Shown here one piece after another: positions 773 to 11,276 of a DNA stretch of 11,276 nucleotides; the first letter of the stretch is position 1; every line of letters begins with the position of its first letter. The notes under the pieces are model-generated. The model was not told the origin of the DNA. It worked only from the letters and a program-made list of their open reading frames with translations, and made no database searches. The stretch lies in IMG/VR virus record IMGVR_UViG_2675903289_000014. One strand, given 5' to 3'. The DNA is from a virus (lineage: Duplodnaviria > Heunggongvirae > Uroviricota > Caudoviricetes). The position numbers and the translations under genes are program-made.

Positions 773-818
773 CGCCGCACACCAGAGATTCGTTGTTGCC
801 AAGATCGATAGTATCCAT
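773..818 (-). CDS. N-terminus of small hypothetical protein (MDTIDLGNNESLV...), paralog of the 1108..1398 gene; rest masked
   Basis: ATG at complement of 816-818; the first ~13 codons are near-identical to the start of the 1108..1398 gene (MNTIDLGNNESLVYG). Length and C-terminus unknown because 431-772 is masked. Confidence 0.3.
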
Positions 819-856: not shown

Positions 857-1107
857 AAAAAACCTGCTGCNNNNNNNNNNNNNNNNNNNNNNNNNNNNNN
901 NNNNNNNNNNNNNNNNNNNNNNNNNNNNNNNNNNNNNNNNNNNNNNNNNNNNNNNNNNNNNNNNNNNNNNNNNNNNNNNNNNNNNNNNNNNNNNNNNNNN
1001 NNNNNNNNNNNNNNNNNNNNNNNNNNNNNNNNNNNNNNNNNNNNNNNNNNNNNNNNNNNNNNNNNNNNNNNNNNNNNNNCCTAAGGTGGTTCTGTCGGCG
1101 GGAATAA

Positions 1108-1398
1108 TTAACTGTTTTTGCCTGGATACTGTCTTCGAGAATGCACAATATTTACTACTTCTATGCTTGATGCTGTTACTCGGTAAAGGATGATGTNNNN
1201 NNNNNNNNNNNNNNNNNNNNNNNNNNNNNNNNNNNNNNNNNNNNNNNNNNNNNNNNNNNNNNNNNNNNNNNGACGTGCGCCAGCTTCGGTTTTAAACGTT
1301 TTGCTTTTGGTATACGTCATGGCGGTGAATGTGCCGTCCTGGTTGGGGAACACGCCGTACACCAGAGATTCGTTGTTGCCAAGATCGATAGTATTCAT
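1108..1398 (-). CDS. hypothetical small protein (96 codons including 25 masked); N-terminus MNTIDLGNNESLVYGVFPNQDGTFTAMTYTKSKTFKTEAGAR; C-terminal 28 aa ParE/RelE-like (possibly chimeric or two adjacent genes)
   Basis: ATG at complement of 1396-1398 preceded by a G-rich stretch (aaggggaaatgggg); only this minus frame is open across 1272-1398. Visible C-terminus IILYRVTASSIEVVNIVHSRRQYPGKNS, stop TAA at complement of 1108-1110. An in-frame GTG at 1452 is an alternative start. Continuity across the 75-nt mask 1197-1271 is assumed, not seen. Confidence 0.4.
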   Translation of the reverse strand: MNTIDLGNNESLVYGVFPNQDGTFTAMTYTKSKTFKTEAGARXXXXXXXXXXXXXXXXXXXXXXXXXXIILYRVTASSIEVVNIVHSRRQYPGKNS

Positions 1399-1436
1399 GT
1401 TGACCCCATTTCCCCTTAACGCCGGGGTAGCGGAAC
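1353..1436. repeat. direct repeat, copy 2 (84 bp), about 94 percent identical to 773-856
   Basis: Same hand alignment as copy 1. Covers the start codon and 5' flank of the 1108..1398 gene. Confidence 0.75.
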
Positions 1437-1601
1437 TGTTTGCTGAGAACACCGTGCGGTGTCTTGATGAATGAAATTTAGAATAACCTAAGGTGGGCGG
1501 TCAAGATTTTTGTGTAGAAAAACCTAAGTTTTTTTGATGTAAAAAACACAAGTGTTTGAAAGTTTGTGCTTTTTATTACAGGGTGTGGAGAAAAAAGGGG
1601 A

Positions 1602-1930
1602 TTATTTGTTTGCGCTTCTTTTGCGAGCTTTGAGTAGTTCTTCAAAAAGTTTGTTGAAATTTTCAACTCGAGCACGCATCTCTGACAACAGGGCCTTTTG
1701 CTCTGACTCAGGCAGTGCGTCGAACAGTTGAAGTAACTCTTTTTGATCTTCTGTCAGAATGGCTGGCTGATTATCCGGGATCGGTTCGCCTGGTTGTTTA
1801 TCTTCATCCCCAAAAAGAAGCCAAGTCGGTGAGCACTGAAGCGCTTGGCTCAGTGCGAATAATCTTTTCCCCGCCGGCTGTGTTTCATCTCTTTCCCATT
1901 GAGAAATTGTTACGTGAGCCACTTTGACCA
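1602..1930 (-). CDS. XRE/DicA-like helix-turn-helix transcriptional regulator, C-terminal 108 aa visible; N-terminus masked
   Basis: Minus frame ends TAA at complement of 1602-1604. Translation ...VAHVTISQWERDETQPAGKRLFALSQALQCSPTWLLFGDEDKQPGEPIPDNQPAILTEDQKELLQLFDALPESEQKALLSEMRARVENFNKLFEELLKARKRSANK has the second half of an XRE-type HTH (ISQWER...LSQAL) plus a C-terminal helical extension, as in DicA-type prophage repressors. Confidence 0.6.
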
Positions 1931-2734: not shown

Positions 2735-2775
2735 AAATCATCACGAGCAGATGGTAGCCATAAAACGGGTAACAT
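2735..2775 (-). CDS. parE: ParE-family toxin, N-terminal 13 codons visible (MLPVLWLPSARDD...); remainder masked
   Basis: ATG at complement of 2773-2775 overlaps the upstream antitoxin stop (TAATG), the classic toxin-antitoxin coupling. The N-terminal peptide fits the ParE/RelE N-terminal pattern. Gene length cannot be seen. Confidence 0.4.
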
Positions 2776-2969
2776 TATTCACCTCTGTGAGTTGCAGCAG
2801 CAATTTGGGCAATAATTTGTTCCATTTCCGCCATTACCTCATCATGCGGAATCGCCGGGCGGGGATCCGCGAGGCTTGCTGCTACTTTGGCCCGCAGCCA
2901 TTCGTTGTAACTATTTTCTTGCTCAACTGTCTCAAATTCTGAAACCATTGGGGAAAGGACTGTACTCAT
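2775..2969 (-). CDS. paaA: small PaaA-like antitoxin of a ParE-type three-component toxin-antitoxin system (64 aa)
   Basis: ATG at complement of 2967-2969 with SD GGAG about 9 nt upstream; stop TAA at complement of 2775-2777. Product MSTVLSPMVSEFETVEQENSYNEWLRAKVAASLADPRPAIPHDEVMAEMEQIIAQIAAATHRGE. It sits between the cI-like repressor and a ParE-like start, the organisation described for paaR-paaA-parE in E. coli O157 cryptic prophages. Identity to PaaA2 is from memory, not verified. Confidence 0.55.
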   Translation of the reverse strand: MSTVLSPMVSEFETVEQENSYNEWLRAKVAASLADPRPAIPHDEVMAEMEQIIAQIAAATHRGE

Positions 2970-2988: not shown

Positions 2989-3489
2989 TTAGGCGCGACG
3001 GCCTTTTTGTGCAGCTAACCACCGCGCAACCGTACGATCCATTGATTCTTTTTTATCTTTCATCTCCTGAAGCATGTGTTCTTGATCTTCTTTCGGAAAA
3101 GCTCTGAACGTATGGATTAAATCTCGTTCCATCGGCTCTACGGCAAACGGTAGTTCATCCTCTGTTTGTTCTGTGTCTGCTGGTAATGCGACTATGTTAT
3201 CTTGCTGTGGTTCTCGACAATACATCCTTGCAATTTGCAGCAAATCTACCATGTCTGGCCTGATTGACTCAGGGGGAACTTTCAGTAAGCCAGCAAACTT
3301 TAGAACAGCCTCAAGGTTTAGTGGGGTTTGACCATTTAGGTAGTGACTTACCGCCCCTTGTGTTGAAAACCCCATAATTTCCGCCGCACGTTCCTGAGTC
3401 AATCCCAACTGAGATTTCTTTGCCATCCAGATTTCTTTCAGTCTTCTGGCGGCGTTGAGGTCGGTGTCTGACAATGATTTTCTTTTCAT
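2989..3489 (-). CDS. paaR: lambda cI-like HTH repressor lacking a LexA-type S24 peptidase domain (166 aa); PaaR-like
   Basis: ATG at complement of 3487-3489 (alternative GTG at 3519); stop TAA at complement of 2989-2991. The N-terminus SDTDLNAARRLKEIWMAKKSQLGLTQERAAEIMGFSTQGAVSHYLNGQTPLNLEAVLKFAGLLKVPPESI parallels the lambda cI DNA-binding domain. The C-terminus is short and acidic with no Ser/Lys peptidase motifs. It is divergent from the Cro-like gene. Confidence 0.6.
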   Translation of the reverse strand: MKRKSLSDTDLNAARRLKEIWMAKKSQLGLTQERAAEIMGFSTQGAVSHYLNGQTPLNLEAVLKFAGLLKVPPESIRPDMVDLLQIARMYCREPQQDNIVALPADTEQTEDELPFAVEPMERDLIHTFRAFPKEDQEHMLQEMKDKKESMDRTVARWLAAQKGRRA

Positions 3490-3600: not shown

Positions 3601-3864
3601 ATGAATCTTGGAGAATATTTGCATCATTTTCATATAACCCAGAGTTCATTTGCTGAGATTGTTGGCGCATCCCAAGGGATGGTCAGCCACGTTATAACGG
3701 GGCGTGCAAAACTTACAGGAGAAAAAATATTACGTTGGTGTGAAGCAACGGGATGGGTGGTGACCCCACATGAGATTGACAGTAAAACCTACCCCAACCC
3801 AACTGACGGCTTGCCTGCTGAGTTTCAGGCTAACACACAACCATCGGCGGGGGTTGATTCATGA
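3601..3864 (+). CDS. ydaS: Cro-like HTH protein (YdaS family), 87 aa
   Basis: ATG 3601 with SD agggcgg at 3591-3597; stop TGA 3862-3864. Product MNLGEYLHHFHITQSSFAEIVGASQGMVSHVITGRAKLTGEKILRWCEATGW... has an XRE-type HTH. Position and orientation match cro. A TTG at 3574 is an alternative start. Confidence 0.6.
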   Translation: MNLGEYLHHFHITQSSFAEIVGASQGMVSHVITGRAKLTGEKILRWCEATGWVVTPHEIDSKTYPNPTDGLPAEFQANTQPSAGVDS

Positions 3865-4286
3865 AAATCAAGCATGAACACATCCGCATGGCGATGAAAG
3901 CCTGGGCGCATCCGGACGGTGAAAAAGTTCCGGCAGCTGAAATAACCAGGGTTTATTTCGAACTGGGAATGACGTTTCCGGTTCTGCATAACGACAGCAA
4001 GCACAACACGCTTTATCTCAACACCCAAAAGATTTTCCGTTGGCTGGATAAAGACACCCCTGACGCTGTTGAAAAAATTCAGGCGTTGTTACCTGCGATC
4101 GAAAGGGCAATGCCACCTCCGCTGGTGGCTCGAATGCGCAGCCACAGTTCAGCTTATTTTCGGGAACTGGTGGAGACGCATGAACGACTGGTGAGAGACG
4201 CTGATGATTTTGTCGCAGTGGCAATCGCCGGTTTCAATCAGATGAACCGTGGTGGCCCGGCAGGAAATGCTGTGGCAGTACATTGA
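3861..4286 (+). CDS. ydaT: YdaT-family protein (CII-like functional position), 141 aa
   Basis: ATG 3861 overlaps the Cro-like stop (ATGA) with a G-run SD upstream; stop TGA 4284-4286. The N-terminus MKIKHEHI... and the position directly after ydaS match Rac/CP-933P YdaT as I recall it. Confidence 0.65.
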   Translation: MKIKHEHIRMAMKAWAHPDGEKVPAAEITRVYFELGMTFPVLHNDSKHNTLYLNTQKIFRWLDKDTPDAVEKIQALLPAIERAMPPPLVARMRSHSSAYFRELVETHERLVRDADDFVAVAIAGFNQMNRGGPAGNAVAVH

Positions 4287-4681: not shown

Positions 4682-6138
4682 NNNNNNNNNNNNNNNNNNN
4701 NNNNNNNNNNNNNNNNNNNNNNNNNNNNNNNNNNNNNNNNNNNNNNNNNNNNNNNNNNNNNNNNNNNNNNNNNNNNNNNNNNNNNNNNNNNNNNNNNNNN
4801 NNNNNNNNNNNNNNNNNNNNNNNNNNNNNNNNNNNNNNNNNNNNNNNNNNNNNNNNNNNNNNNNNNNNNNNNNNNNNNNNNNNNNNNNNNNNNNNNNNNN
4901 NNNNNNNNNNNNNNNNNNNNNNNNNNNNNNNNNNNNNNNNNNNNNNNNNNNNNNNNNNNNNNNNNNNNNNNNNNNNNNNNNNNNNNNNNNNNNNNNNNNN
5001 NNNNNNNNNNNNNNNNNNNNNNNNNNNNNNNNNNNNNNNNNNNNNNNNNNNNNNNNNNNNNNNNNNNNNNNNNNNNNNNNNNNNNNNNNNNNNNNNNNNN
5101 NNNNNNNNNNNNNNNNNNNNNNNNNNNNNNNNNNNNNNNNNNNNNNNNNNNNNNNNNNNNNNNNNNNNNNNNNNNNNNNNNNNNNNNNNNNNNNNNNNNN
5201 NNNNNNNNNNNNNNNNNNNNNNNNNNNNNNNNNNNNNNNNNNNNNNNNNNNNNNNGTGTGNNNNNNNNNNNNNNNNNNNNNNNNNNNNNNNNNNNNNNNN
5301 NNNNNNNNNNNNNNNNNNNNNNNNNNNNNNNNNNNNNNNNNNNNNNNNNNNNNNNNNNNNNNNNNNNNNNNNNNNNNNNNNNNNNNNNNNNNNNNNNNNN
5401 NNNNNNNNNNNNNNNNNNNNNNNNNNNNNNNNNNNNNNNNNNNNNNNNNNNNNNNNNNNNNNNNNNNNNNNNNNNNNNNNNNNNNNNNNNNNNNNNNNNN
5501 NNNNNNNNNNNNNNNNNNNNNNNNNNNNNNNNNNNNNNNNNNNNNNNNNNNNNNNNNNNNNNNNNNNNNNNNNNNNNNNNNNNNNNNNNNNNNNNNNNNN
5601 NNNNNNNNNNNNNNNNNNNNNNNNNNNNNNNNNNNNNNNNNNNNNNNNNNNNNNNNNNNNNNNNNNNNNNNNNNNNNNNNNNNNNNNNNNNNNNNNNNNN
5701 NNNNNNNNNNNNNNNNNNNNNNNNNNNNNNNNNNNNNNNNNNNNNNNNNNNNNNNNNNNNNNNNNNNNNNNNNNNNNNNNNNNNNNNNNCGACGGGCAAA
5801 AATACGCGCTGAGCCNNNNNNNNNNNNNNNNNNNNNNNNNNNNNNNNNNNNNNNNNNNNNNNNNNNNNNNNNNNNNNNNNNNNNNNNNNNNNNNNNNNNN
5901 NNNNNNNNNNNNNNNNNNNNNNNNNNNNNNNNNNNNNNNNNNNNNNNNNNNNNNNNNNNNNNNNNNNNNNNNNNNNNNNNNNNNNNNNNNNNNNNNNNNN
6001 NNNNNNNNNNNNNNNNNNNNNNNNNNNNNNNNNNNNNNNNNNNNNNNNNNNNNNNNNNNNNNNNNNNNNNNNNNNNNNNNNNNNNNNNNNNNNNNNNNNN
6101 NNNNNNNNNNNNNNNNNNNNNNNNNNNNNNNNNNNNNN

Positions 6139-6237: not shown

Positions 6238-6327
6238 NNNNNNNNNNNNNNNNNNNNNNNNNNNNNNNNNNNNNNNNNNNNNNNNNNNNCGGGAGTTGTG
6301 AAGTAATTTTTGTTGGAGGATGTTTTA

Positions 6328-7548: not shown

Positions 7549-7905
7549 ATGGAAATAAAACCAGAAGATGAGTTAAGCAATATTGTTTTATTTCCGGTAA
7601 AAGAGGATAACCCTCGTAATCAGGTTAATTTTCTTTATGAGCCATCGGAAAGACCATATTGCCATCACGCTTCTGTCCGGGTTGACGAAAAAGAGCGTCA
7701 GGTCCGCTGTAAAATCTGCGGTGCGGTTGTGGAGCCGTTTGACTGGATGCTCTCTGTGGCAAAAAGAGAAACCAGACTGGCAGATGATGTAAGGCTCTTG
7801 CGCCAGGAGGAGCGGGAAAGGCGAAAAAATATAGAAAAGCTAATCCAGATTGAGCGTAATGCGAAAGCGCGGATACGCAGGGTGACAAAATATAGCCCCG
7901 AATAA
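7549..7905 (+). CDS. uncharacterised zinc-ribbon-like protein with Arg/Lys/Glu-rich coiled-coil tail (118 aa)
   Basis: ATG 7549 with strong SD aaggagaggag (7538-7547); stop TAA 7903-7905. Product contains C-H-H-x14-C-x2-C (YCHHASVRVDEKERQVRCKICGAVVEP) followed by RLADDVRLLRQEERERRKNIEKLIQIERNAKARIRR. A GTG at 7492 is an alternative start. Confidence 0.6.
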   Translation: MEIKPEDELSNIVLFPVKEDNPRNQVNFLYEPSERPYCHHASVRVDEKERQVRCKICGAVVEPFDWMLSVAKRETRLADDVRLLRQEERERRKNIEKLIQIERNAKARIRRVTKYSPE

Positions 7906-8119: not shown

Positions 8120-10021
8120 ATGGCCCGCATGTTTGATACATTAGGATTTTACATTATGAATGTGCAACATTTTGATTTTTTTACAGATAATGAGTTTTCT
8201 AATCTGGAAAGATATCAAACTTGTAAAGCCATGGCCAAAGGTTATGCGGGCAATTACAAAACCGGGCAGTCAAGGTTGATGCATGCCCGCTCATACTGCT
8301 TCAGCATCGTAGCTGCATATTGGGATACCCTTGCAAAAAAGCAAAAAAGCAGCATTAAAATGAGGGCAGTACCGCACACTGTTTACATAGAAGACATTCC
8401 ATGTGATGCACGCGAGCTCGCTGAACGAACAGGTGAGCTTATTGCTCAATTTCCGGCGGAGGACGCTGGATATCTGATTGGGTCAATTTATACGGTAATG
8501 CTGCCATCCGCTTACCGTTCGGAATTGGGGGCTTACTATACCCCCCCACCTTTGGTAGCGCGTCTCTTGGACCTGGCTGAAAAGTCTGGTGTTGATTTTT
8601 CTCATGCATCGGTTATTGATCCTGCGTGTGGTGGCGGTGCATTTTTGGCACCAGTAGCCATTCGAATGTTAAAAAAAGACAAGGGGTCTTCCCCTGAATG
8701 GATGTTGAGGAGAATCAGTCGTCGTTTAAAGGGGATAGAGATCGATCCATTTGCGGCTTGGATGAGTTTGGTATTGCTCGAATCTGTACTAATGCCACTA
8801 TGTGTAAAGGTAAAACGTAGATTGCCTGAAGATACAATTATTGTTGCTGATGCGCTTCAGCAAGATAAATTTTCTGGTTATGATCTTGTGGTAGGGAATC
8901 CGCCTTACGGACGTGTCACTCTCGATATTAAAACGAGAGAAAAATATTCTCGTTCGTTATTTGGTCATGCAAATCTATATGGATTGTTCACCGACTTAGC
9001 TGTTCGCATGGTTAAAGAGAAAACAGGAGTTATTGCATTTCTTACGCCAACTTCTTTTCTTGGTGGGCAGTATTTCACCGCGCTGCGAACCCTTTTGACC
9101 GAAAAAACTACTCCNNNNNNNNNNNNNNNNNNNNNNNNNNNNNNNNNNNNNNNNNNNNNNNNNNNNNNNNNNNNNNNNNNNNNNNNNNNNNNNNNNNNNN
9201 NNNNNNNNNNNNNNNNNNNNNNNNNNNNNNNNNNNNNNNNNNNNNNNNNNNNNNNNNNNNNNNNNNNNNNNNNNNNNNNNNNNNNNNNNNNNNNNNNNNN
9301 NNNNNNNNNNNNNNNNNNNNNNNNNNNNNNNNNNNNNNNNNNNNNNNNNNNNNNNNNNNNNNNNNNNNNNNNNNNNNNNNNNNNNNNNNNNNNNNNNNNN
9401 NNNNNNNNNNNNNNNNNNNNNNNNNNNNNNNNNNNNNNNNNNNNNNNNNNNNNNNNNNNNNNNNNNNNNNNNNNNNNNNNNNNNNNNNNNNNNNNNNNNN
9501 NNNNNNNNNNNNNNNNNNNNNNNNNNNNNNNNNNNNNNNNNNNNNNNNNNNNNNNNNNNNNNNNNNNNNNNNNNNNNNNNNNNNNNNNNNNNNNNNNNNN
9601 NNNNNNNNNNNNNNNNNNNNNNNNNACAAAATCTGAATGTGTGCTTGTTCAGCGGACAACATCGAAGGAACAGGACAGAAGGATTTTAGCGGCAATTTTA
9701 CCTCAGGGATTTATAGNNNNNNNNNNNNNNNNNNNNNNNNNNNNNNNNNNNNNNNNNNNNNNNNNNNNNNNNNNNNNNNNNNNNNNNNNNNNNNNNNNNN
9801 NNNNNNNNNNNNNNNNNNNNNNNNNNNNNNNNNNNNNNNNNNNNNNNNNNNNNNNNNNNNNNNNNNNNNNNNNNNNNNNNNNNNNNNNNNNNNNNNNNNN
9901 NNNNNNNNNNNNNNNNNNNNNNNNNNNNNNNNNNNNNNNNNNNNNNNNNNNNNNNNNNNNNNNNNNNNNNNNNNNNNNNNNNNNNNNNNNNNCTGGTTTC
10001 TATGGAGTGATGATTGCATGA
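8120..10021 (+). CDS. gamma-class N6-adenine DNA methyltransferase, Eco57I/PstI-type (about 620-633 aa; target-recognition region largely masked)
   Basis: Motifs read directly: GAYYTPPPLVARLL (Eco57I-type motif X), VIDPACGGGAFL (AdoMet-binding motif I), VVGNPPYG (motif IV, NPPY indicates N6-adenine). Motif I precedes motif IV, the gamma arrangement. The frame is continuous through both masked blocks to TGA 10019-10021. Start is uncertain (ATG 8120, 8129 or 8156, none with a strong SD). Confidence 0.85.
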   Translation: MARMFDTLGFYIMNVQHFDFFTDNEFSNLERYQTCKAMAKGYAGNYKTGQSRLMHARSYCFSIVAAYWDTLAKKQKSSIKMRAVPHTVYIEDIPCDARELAERTGELIAQFPAEDAGYLIGSIYTVMLPSAYRSELGAYYTPPPLVARLLDLAEKSGVDFSHASVIDPACGGGAFLAPVAIRMLKKDKGSSPEWMLRRISRRLKGIEIDPFAAWMSLVLLESVLMPLCVKVKRRLPEDTIIVADALQQDKFSGYDLVVGNPPYGRVTLDIKTREKYSRSLFGHANLYGLFTDLAVRMVKEKTGVIAFLTPTSFLGGQYFTALRTLLTEKTTXXXXXXXXXXXXXXXXXXXXXXXXXXXXXXXXXXXXXXXXXXXXXXXXXXXXXXXXXXXXXXXXXXXXXXXXXXXXXXXXXXXXXXXXXXXXXXXXXXXXXXXXXXXXXXXXXXXXXXXXXXXXXXXXXXXXXXXXXXXXXXXXXXXXXXXXXXXXXXXXXXXXXXXXXXXTKSECVLVQRTTSKEQDRRILAAILPQGFIXXXXXXXXXXXXXXXXXXXXXXXXXXXXXXXXXXXXXXXXXXXXXXXXXXXXXXXXXXXXXXXXXXXXXXXXXXXXXXXXXXXXXXXXXXXXXGFYGVMIA

Positions 10022-11100
10022 ATCTGCCTGTTGTTCCCCCATTGAATGTTATCCGGGAAAGATTACAATTAATTTTCCCTGAAGGGACTGAGAATCGTGG
10101 ATATTTAATTCGGGAAATAGCTGCAAAAACAATTTTTGTCATGTTTTATGCTGGTGCGGTTGAGGGGCTGGGGCGATGGATAAGGCCCAGCCAGGTTGTA
10201 AGTATGGGAGATTCGCAGGCTGCTCTTACTGATGATGCGTCCAGAGAAAGCTGGGTAAAGATGACTTTCTCTAAACAAAAGATAAGGCCTGCTGATGCAT
10301 GGTATGCGGAAAATACGCGTGAGCCAATACGTGATGAAACTATAAAAAATGGCCTAATACCTTGCAATGCAATTGTTGAGCGTAAAGGTATACCCACCAC
10401 ATCCTCTCGTCCTCGTTACAGTTTGAATCGCTCTTTTGCAGCACTCTTTGATGCCGGGCTTGAAGGAGATTCGCTGCTGAGTGCAATAAGTTCCTGGCAA
10501 GAAAATCATTTGAACAAAGCCGCTCTTGCTAGGTTGCGTTTATTGAAATCAGGGGCAGTGATTGCTGCTGATGCCGTAGTCGTCACTTTCCCAAATGGAG
10601 AGAAGAGAACTTTAGCTCCGGGCCCGTCAAGTACAATAGCTAAGGCCGTCATCGAAGTTTTTGCTCCTAATTTTCTTAAGAATCCAACTGTGCTCTGGTT
10701 GTCTGAATCCGGGAATAAAGTTGTTGCTCAGGATGATGTATTGGCAAAAGCATTGGGGCTGAATATTGATGCCTCAAAAGCACTTCCAGATATTATTTTG
10801 ATTGATTTGGGAGAGGACCGAACGGGTTCGGACATGCTTGTAGTTTTCACTGAAGTAGTTGCGACAGATGGGCCTATAAACAGGGAACGAAAAGTTACTC
10901 TCACTCATTTGGCTATTGACGCTGGGTTCAGCGAGAAAAATCTTGCATTCCTTACGGCATTTATGGACAGAAGTGCTCTGCCTTTTAAAAAGGCAATACC
11001 AGAATTGGCGTGGGGATCTTATGCATGGTTTGCTTCTGAACCGGAGCACTTAATTGATCTTCGGGATGGTTATCCGGTAAAGATCAGCCAGAGAAAATGA
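10018..11100 (+). CDS. putative type II restriction endonuclease, BsuBI/PstI-like (360 aa)
   Basis: ATG 10018 overlaps the methyltransferase stop (ATGA) with GGAG about 10 nt upstream; stop TGA 11098-11100. The C-terminal region has a PD...E-type nuclease-like segment (LPDIILIDLGEDRTGSDMLVVFTEVVATDG). Family assignment rests on context (partner of an Eco57I/PstI-type methyltransferase) and size, not on a verified alignment. Confidence 0.7.
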   Translation: MNLPVVPPLNVIRERLQLIFPEGTENRGYLIREIAAKTIFVMFYAGAVEGLGRWIRPSQVVSMGDSQAALTDDASRESWVKMTFSKQKIRPADAWYAENTREPIRDETIKNGLIPCNAIVERKGIPTTSSRPRYSLNRSFAALFDAGLEGDSLLSAISSWQENHLNKAALARLRLLKSGAVIAADAVVVTFPNGEKRTLAPGPSSTIAKAVIEVFAPNFLKNPTVLWLSESGNKVVAQDDVLAKALGLNIDASKALPDIILIDLGEDRTGSDMLVVFTEVVATDGPINRERKVTLTHLAIDAGFSEKNLAFLTAFMDRSALPFKKAIPELAWGSYAWFASEPEHLIDLRDGYPVKISQRK

Positions 11101-11140: not shown

Positions 11141-11276
11141 TTACGGTGCACTGGATAAAAAATCGGTTTCATAGATTTGCCCACCGTGGTATACGCCTGC
11201 GATAAAAACTTTATTGTCATCAACGGCAAAAGCAATAATTGTTCTGTGGCGGGGTGATGCTGCCAACTTACTGATT
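11141..11276 (-). CDS. C-terminal 44 codons of a convergent gene, RelE/YoeB-like toxin tail (5' end beyond window)
   Basis: Minus frame open from the window edge to TAA at complement of 11141-11143; translation ...ISKLAASPRHRTIIAFAVDDNKVFIAGVYHGGQIYETDFLSSAP. The HR-(I/V)-x-A...DD...IA..YH pattern resembles RelE/YoeB-superfamily C-termini. Low-confidence family call from a fragment. Confidence 0.3.
   Translation of the reverse strand, partial: ISKLAASPRHRTIIAFAVDDNKVFIAGVYHGGQIYETDFLSSAP

Follow-up and report, generated by a model that had tools for sequence, protein, structure and literature searches.

Is ORF 1108–1398 a gene?

The question raised by this locus is whether a small reading frame with a toxin-like C-terminus is a gene at all. 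The DNA analyzed here (the window) is a stretch of 11,276 nt from a Caudoviricetes virus, IMG/VR record IMGVR_UViG_2675903289_000014. The ORF under study runs on its minus strand from an ATG at 1398–1396 to a stop at 1110–1108 and spans a run of N at 1197–1271. From the ATG, the translation gives MNTIDLGNNESLVYGVFPNQDGTFTAMTYTKSKTFKTEAGAR, 25 X for the mask and IILYRVTASSIEVVNIVHSRRQYPGKNS, with the stop at 1108–1110; the readable codons number 42 on the N-terminal side and 28 on the C-terminal side. The longest frame of the ORF opens further upstream, at GTG 1452. The initial annotation treated this as a single continuous ORF, but the frame is joined only via 75 N, and N-run lengths in the window are unreliable. 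We conclude that the "small gene" is almost certainly a 51-residue ydfA plus the 28-codon 3' end of a gene for a ParE2-type toxin, read together across N, and that ORF 1108–1398 is not a real gene. It is highly probable that two unrelated coding pieces have been misread as one gene across the N-run.

The ydfA piece

The 42 visible codons at 1272–1398 (minus strand) belong to a ydfA paralogue of the DUF1391 family, as identified by a match to Pfam PF07151 (83.5 bits against a cut-off of 27.3, profile positions 2–41 of 48) and by 100% identity to Shigella sonnei-type loci (L017, L019, L020, L021, L038, L079, L080 and L088). The start at GTG 1452 corresponds to the form of 69 aa in the S. sonnei annotation (P0001); as far as the mask, P0001 is the same as the GTG-started ORF of the window, and it finishes in RWLGRHSGE*. 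The last visible 49-mer of the piece occurs in 44 public loci, each with a stop 24–27 nt past it, which in the window would lie under the mask. By analogy with these relatives, we infer that a stop codon under the mask ends ydfA, probably ~27–29 nt in, which would give the usual 51-aa product. At full length (51 aa; P0207), the protein agrees with the window at the 42 visible residues, its last 9 being predicted here, and is 92% identical to K-12 YdfA; the K-12 protein is itself 51 aa long, as are the relatives. Among the options raised in the initial annotation, the one favored by these lengths and stops is a small ydfA-like gene beside a parE remnant, with a stop in the mask. A point against it is that the ydfA stop codon itself is hidden by N.

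The window has two ydfA paralogues, at 773–818 and 1272–1436 (both minus strand), which are ~92–94% identical over ~165 nt including the leader. One is resident and follows parE; its visible start (773–818, minus strand) is 100% identical to L004 6765–6810, and it is the copy that trails parE in all relatives, with DUF1391 called at the same position in L004–L013. The second copy belongs to a dicA-like block.

The dicA–ydfA block

The block is visible at 1272–1930. Besides ydfA, it holds the C-terminal 109 codons of a DicA-like repressor (1602–1930, minus strand), 100% identical to S. sonnei-type loci; in relatives the full-length protein has 135 aa. Taken in full from E. coli FDAARGOS_943 (L001), the repressor matches HTH_3 (E 7.8e-14) and shares 62% identity with K-12 DicA from end to end, the two being equal in length at 135 aa. 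The whole visible block is 100% identical to the same S. sonnei-type loci that match the ydfA piece (L017, L019, L020, L021, L038, L079, L080 and L088), and 99.7% identical to FDAARGOS_943. Its content in the S. sonnei-type loci is a 135-aa HTH repressor and then a 51-aa DUF1391 gene. At this position in a paaR2-paaA2-parE2 prophage, the DicA-like repressor is foreign.

Within the block, the order downstream of the dicA-type repressor is the end of the DicA homologue at 1602, a sigma-70-like promoter match at 1475–1504 (minus strand; TTGACC, 18-nt spacer, TAAATT) and the ydfA ATG at 1398. The promoter-like site, a consensus match only, lies upstream of ydfA where dicBp would be. The dicBF operon of K-12 opens with ydfA, which is transcribed from dicBp under the control of DicA (bioRxiv 10.1101/2023.04.14.536235). 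The paralogue in the window would come first after a DicA-like repressor and a dicBp-like promoter, with its own stop ~27 nt inside the mask and a product of 51 aa.

Both the block and an intact parE locus can be found in one genome, at separate sites. In CP104423.1, the intact parE locus lies at ~2.20 Mb (L004/L069), and a dicA–ydfA block 100% identical to 1272–1930 lies at ~3.09 Mb (L079), ~0.9 Mb from it.

In S. sonnei-type genomes, a dicC-dicA-ydfA block of ~1.67 kb sits between two direct IS3-family copies (L038 5034–8682; L016 ends; L079–L088), a layout that resembles a composite transposon. The junction of the block with an IS3-family copy reads GAGAC/TGAGGTAGCC, where the slash marks the boundary, and the bounding copies are presumably IS600. 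One IS3-family copy splits the ydaT-side of the prophage carrying the block in these genomes. In draft assemblies of this type, the block appears as separate contigs of ~1.7 kb. IS-mediated transposition of the block was considered for the window and rejected: the 75-N run is too short for an insertion sequence of ~1.27 kb, and the other runs are not grossly shortened.

The parE tail and head

The C-terminal half of the ORF is the tail of a parE gene, comprising the last 28 codons and the stop (1108–1196, minus strand; codons 69–96 of 96). It is 100% identical in DNA to intact parE in L002–L013, L058–L066 and L069–L078. The identity extends beyond the gene: the visible bases 1080–1196 (117 nt) are the last 89 nt of the intact 96-codon parE plus 28 nt of its downstream flank, matched at 117 of 117 positions, and the resemblance of the C-terminal 28 residues to ParE reported in the initial annotation is borne out against the end of a full-length RelE/ParE-family gene. 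The native 3' flank (1080–1107, minus strand) is 100% identical to L002 6090–6117 and L004 6486–6513. In relatives, parE is trailed by a CCACC-TTAG-GGTGG hairpin and then a T-run, and the flank includes one arm of this hairpin; the hairpin can be read directly in L002, and the terminator scan gave it no score in the window, as the second arm is under N there.

At the protein level, the full-length reference ParE is a close homologue of ParE2 in PDB entry 5CW7_B (E 6.7e-37), and the tail pairs with residues 67–92 of that structure (NYIILYRVTTSSVEVVNVIHARRQFP). The resemblances of the two halves, to DUF1391 and to ParE, both go far beyond chance. The intact reference ParE matches PF05016 with 64.1 bits over positions 1–89. 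The tail alone scores 12.2 bits (E 0.29; cut-off 23) and covers positions 66–89 of 89, which falls short of a whole domain. In-frame ATG, GTG or TTG codons occur in parE at codons 1, 14, 32, 41 and 85 only, with none at codons 42–84. The sole start within the tail is therefore GTG85, which would yield 12 aa; apart from it, an initiation signal downstream of the mask, the lack of which the initial annotation named as the sign of a dead remnant, is absent. Nor does the tail have a start coupled to an upstream antitoxin, since paaA2 ends at 2775, ~1.6 kb away in the window. The tail itself supplies neither a ribosome-binding site nor a usable start codon. As it covers the last quarter of the ParE fold and has no start of its own, it is predicted from sequence not to be expressed as a toxin.

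The other end of a parE gene is visible at 2735–2775 (minus strand). Its first 13 codons are 100% identical to L004 6195–6235, and the ATG overlaps the stop of paaA2 (TAATG). Exactly this head occurs in 33 fetched loci; in 29 of them, the tail completes an intact 291-nt gene, and the remaining four have a 1-nt frameshift (three loci) or a 157-nt deletion (one locus). None of the 33 has an insert between head and tail. Head and tail are 161 positions apart in relatives and 1,538 in the window. The ~1.4 kb that parts the two parE ends has 659 nt visible, which are the dicA-like repressor and ydfA. We infer that one gene accounts for both head and tail, and the supposed separate start of a full ParE-like gene at 2775 is probably the head of the same parE whose tail sits at 1108–1196. 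In the explanation we propose, this parE is the one in the prophage's own paaR2-paaA2-parE2 operon: the tail would be its 3' end, in native downstream context, with the 5' end at 2775, and what parts the two would be a dicA-like gene together with ydfA, both derived from a different prophage of the same kind of genome.

The hidden stretch 1931–2734 might instead carry the rest of a complete parE. In that case, parE would extend from 2775 to ~2485 under the mask, and the tail at 1108–1196 would be what remained of an additional, truncated copy after duplication and insertion. The mask at 1931–2734 has room for the other 250 nt of parE and also for as much as ~475 nt of dicA-block sequence preceding the start of the repressor, and parE does decay in several Shigella lineages. 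However, this requires two events, duplication and insertion, where one suffices; head and tail are each in native context at 100% identity; and two parE pieces were found in 0 of the 33 loci. We consider such a duplicate improbable. The degraded second parE copy proposed in the initial annotation is thus sustained as a remnant, and probably not as a second copy, given that the head at 2775 and the tail form one gene in relatives.

The identical parE decays in other Shigella strains while paaA2 remains intact. For example, S. sonnei L068 1615–1809 (CXDD01000391.1) has a 157-nt internal deletion of parE that leaves a 64-aa product (P0199). Single-nucleotide frameshifts in parE occur in L011/L076 and L067; that of L067 adjoins a 10-N assembly gap and might be spurious. 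A 53-aa partial ParE (P0186) was considered as an IS insertion in parE, a reading rejected on finding the 1-nt frameshift beside the 10-N assembly gap.

Lengths of the N-runs

Whether the two halves could share a frame depends on the lengths of the N-runs, of which the window has ten, amounting to 3,695 of its 11,276 bases. These lengths were calibrated against L004, L058, L065 and L069, references without an indel in any visible segment covered; L069 covers ~7.0 kb with 4 mismatches and L058 covers ~3.9 kb with none. The run at 431–772 is 342 nt in the window and 216 in the references (+126), that at 871–1079 is 209 versus 199 (+10), and those at 4682–5255 and 5261–5789 together are 1103 versus 981 (+122). 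For the run at 5816–6138 the figures are 323 and 340 (−17), for 6238–6289 they are 52 and 26 (+26), for 9115–9625 they are 511 and 457 (+54), and for 9717–9992 they are 276 and 261 (+15). With lengths off by −17 to +126 nt, the shared frame of the two halves across the 75 N is uninformative, and both coordinates and reading frames across any N-run of the window are unreliable. We also considered the length differences as in-frame indels and rejected this, as three of seven being multiples of three is the chance expectation. Tiny visible islands of 5 nt (5256–5260) and 26 nt (5790–5815) lie between N-runs.

The ends of the window were placed on the same references. The window corresponds to exactly L069 2097–11659, which is 9,563 nt in S. 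sonnei-type genomes. Its bases 1–30 match DNA under an annotated IS1 transposase, and its right end is 32 nt short of the start of IS1 insA in L069. The exact span on L069 and the presence of IS1 at or beside both ends make the window look like a whole draft contig.

Some further features were seen along the window. At the right end, similarity to E. coli FDAARGOS_943 ceases at 11252. Four differences from L004/L069, at 7716, 7725, 7737 and 7761, cluster in a 46-nt part of a 118-aa ORF (7549–7905); all four are synonymous and the protein is identical. From the sequence, this cluster may be a small gene-conversion patch. At 8120–11100 (plus strand), the prophage carries a restriction-modification pair, made up of a partly masked gene for a 610-aa N6-methyltransferase/Eco57I-like protein and a gene for a 360-aa BsuBI/PstI-family endonuclease.

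Searches for a fusion protein or the same arrangement

An in-frame chimera would consist of the first 42–51 residues of YdfA fused to the C-terminal part of ParE by illegitimate recombination. Taken at face value, the N-run does put both halves in the same frame. When junctions were enumerated as colinear models with hidden lengths of 30–130 nt, 11% yielded a fusion, which requires a ydfA continuation of at most 28 nt and a hidden length that keeps the frame; the same conditions are a point against our preferred reading. In all other colinear models, the tail could start only at GTG85, giving 12 aa. On the other side, the shared frame carries no weight given the unreliable N-run lengths, the stop is present in 44 of 44 relatives, and the ParE part would be without the N-terminal helices and first strands, having profile positions 66–89 of 89 only.

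Proteins spanning both halves were absent from the databases searched. A word-index search of 5.8 billion clusters, with the ORF given X for the mask, revealed no YdfA-ParE fusion in 15 billion proteins; the 197 proteins matched were all found via the YdfA part, at a coverage of 44% or less. Running HMMER exhaustively on 1.84 billion cluster representatives gave no fusion either: 137 matches covered one half each, 136 the YdfA part and one (P0344) a plain full-length ParE. A search with the intact ParE gave truncated and frameshifted Shigella variants, with no fusion to dicA or ydfA sequence. A new RelE-superfamily architecture, which had also been entertained, is unsupported: all 137 matching representatives were reached via one half only, and none has DUF1391 together with ParE.

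The arrangement itself was searched for in nucleotide collections. With the exact flanks of the masked junction, there were no hits in IMG/VR, GTDB representatives or JGI metagenomes for a gap of 65–85 nt, and none in JGI metagenomes for a gap of 35–65 nt. The ydfA 49-mer did not occur in GTDB representatives; in IMG/VR, it occurred in 36 loci and a 61-mer of the parE tail in 9, with none having both. Megablast of the region and of the whole window against 5,426 complete E. coli genomes found the ydfA block and the parE tail together in none, and the best genome record covers 39% of the window. Exact-protein look-ups with PaaA2, the 118-aa ORF, P0001, P0207, P0186 and P0199 returned the standard parE locus or the IS-bounded dicA–ydfA block, never both, among the 24 blocks with the longest contigs; rare draft contigs could be missed.

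On this evidence, fusion by illegitimate recombination is very unlikely. It is just as unlikely that the locus makes a protein of ~70–100 residues with a DUF1391 head and the C-terminal strands of ParE2, produced when illegitimate recombination put a second (DicA-type) immunity block into the toxin gene of a PaaA2-ParE2 addiction module.

Interruption or joining artifact

If the small ORF is ydfA followed by the parE tail, as we favor, the remaining question is whether parE is truly split. The juxtaposition could be an artifact, arising from a mis-scaffolded small repeat-bounded contig or from the construction of the window, in which case parE would be intact and the dicA–ydfA block would lie elsewhere. 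We give this about an even chance. It is compatible with the best explanation of the ORF and differs from it only on whether parE is truly split; the tail is not a gene under either reading. Several observations point to an artifact. The window resembles a whole draft contig that corresponds to L069 2097–11659 with IS1 at or beside both ends, and in S. sonnei-type genomes the block is repeat-bounded and found there as separate ~1.7 kb contigs. The block also lies close to the resident ydfA at 818, which is 92% similar and oriented the same way, such that cross-mapped read pairs would put it there. In addition, both junctions are under N-runs, the lengths of which behave as gap estimates, and the insert is in no genome seen. 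The masked junctions, the nearby ydfA and the repeats around the block elsewhere would suit a real insertion equally well. Against an artifact, the gap overestimate would be ~1.4 kb, far above the other N-runs, and many real rearrangements occur in Shigella genomes.

With both junctions masked, a real insertion and a mis-join are about equally probable. The absence of the juxtaposition from all other sequences searched, with no independent copy of the junctions, also weighs against our explanation. If the interruption is real, parE would be a pseudogene and PaaA2 an orphan antitoxin; if it is a joining artifact, parE would simply be intact. A real interruption would be a modest but neat case: an incoming second repressor block would have inactivated the toxin and left an orphan antitoxin behind, which would fit the decay of the toxin gene in other Shigella copies. 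The PaaA2-ParE2 addiction module has been proposed to guard the immunity region of the prophage against recombination (PMC8630535). Apart from a possible real interruption of parE, all components of the locus are already known.

Comparison with known systems

In the immunity region of the window, the gene upstream of the parE head is paaA2, a complete antitoxin gene of 64 aa (2775–2969, minus strand; Pfam PF21217, 81.9 bits); 6355 blocks of the collection list exactly this PaaA2 protein. It is preceded by a PaaR2/CI-like HTH repressor of 166 aa (2989–3489, minus strand; HTH_3, E 8.3e-9), in the gene order of L004 and L069. The divergent genes at 3601–4286 (plus strand), likewise complete, are ydaS-like and ydaT, recognized by YdaT_toxin PF06254 (E 5.1e-9) and a weak HTH_3 match. 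A paaR2-paaA2-parE2/ydaS-ydaT immunity region has been described for prophage CP-933P, with the PaaR2/CI-like repressor as the first gene of a three-gene operon, the ydaS-like gene as a Cro analogue and ydaT as a CII analogue (PMC8630535). Of the three-component module in the window, the repressor and PaaA2 are complete, and parE is visible as head and tail only, its middle being masked.

The module resembles PaaR2-PaaA2-ParE2 of the cryptic prophage CP-933P of E. coli O157:H7 in having the order CI-like repressor, PaaA2 (PF21217) and ParE, with divergent ydaS-ydaT; ParE2 structures are available from the O157:H7 system (5CW7, 5CZE). Unlike the CP-933P module, the window shows codons 1–13 and 69–96 of parE only, with foreign DNA between them, and the tail alone is not a ParE toxin.

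The ydfA piece is like YdfA of the K-12 Qin prophage in its 51-aa length, in its position downstream of a DicA homologue (62% identical, 135 aa) and in the promoter-like site at the position of dicBp. In contrast to the Qin dicBF operon, the ydfA of the window is followed, past the mask, by the parE tail instead of ydfB or ydfC. Finally, the locus can be compared with the decay of parE in Shigella (L068/P0199, L011/L076 and L067), in which the same, identical gene is affected. The lesions in those strains are small deletions or frameshifts, and none of them is an inserted second repressor module as in the window.
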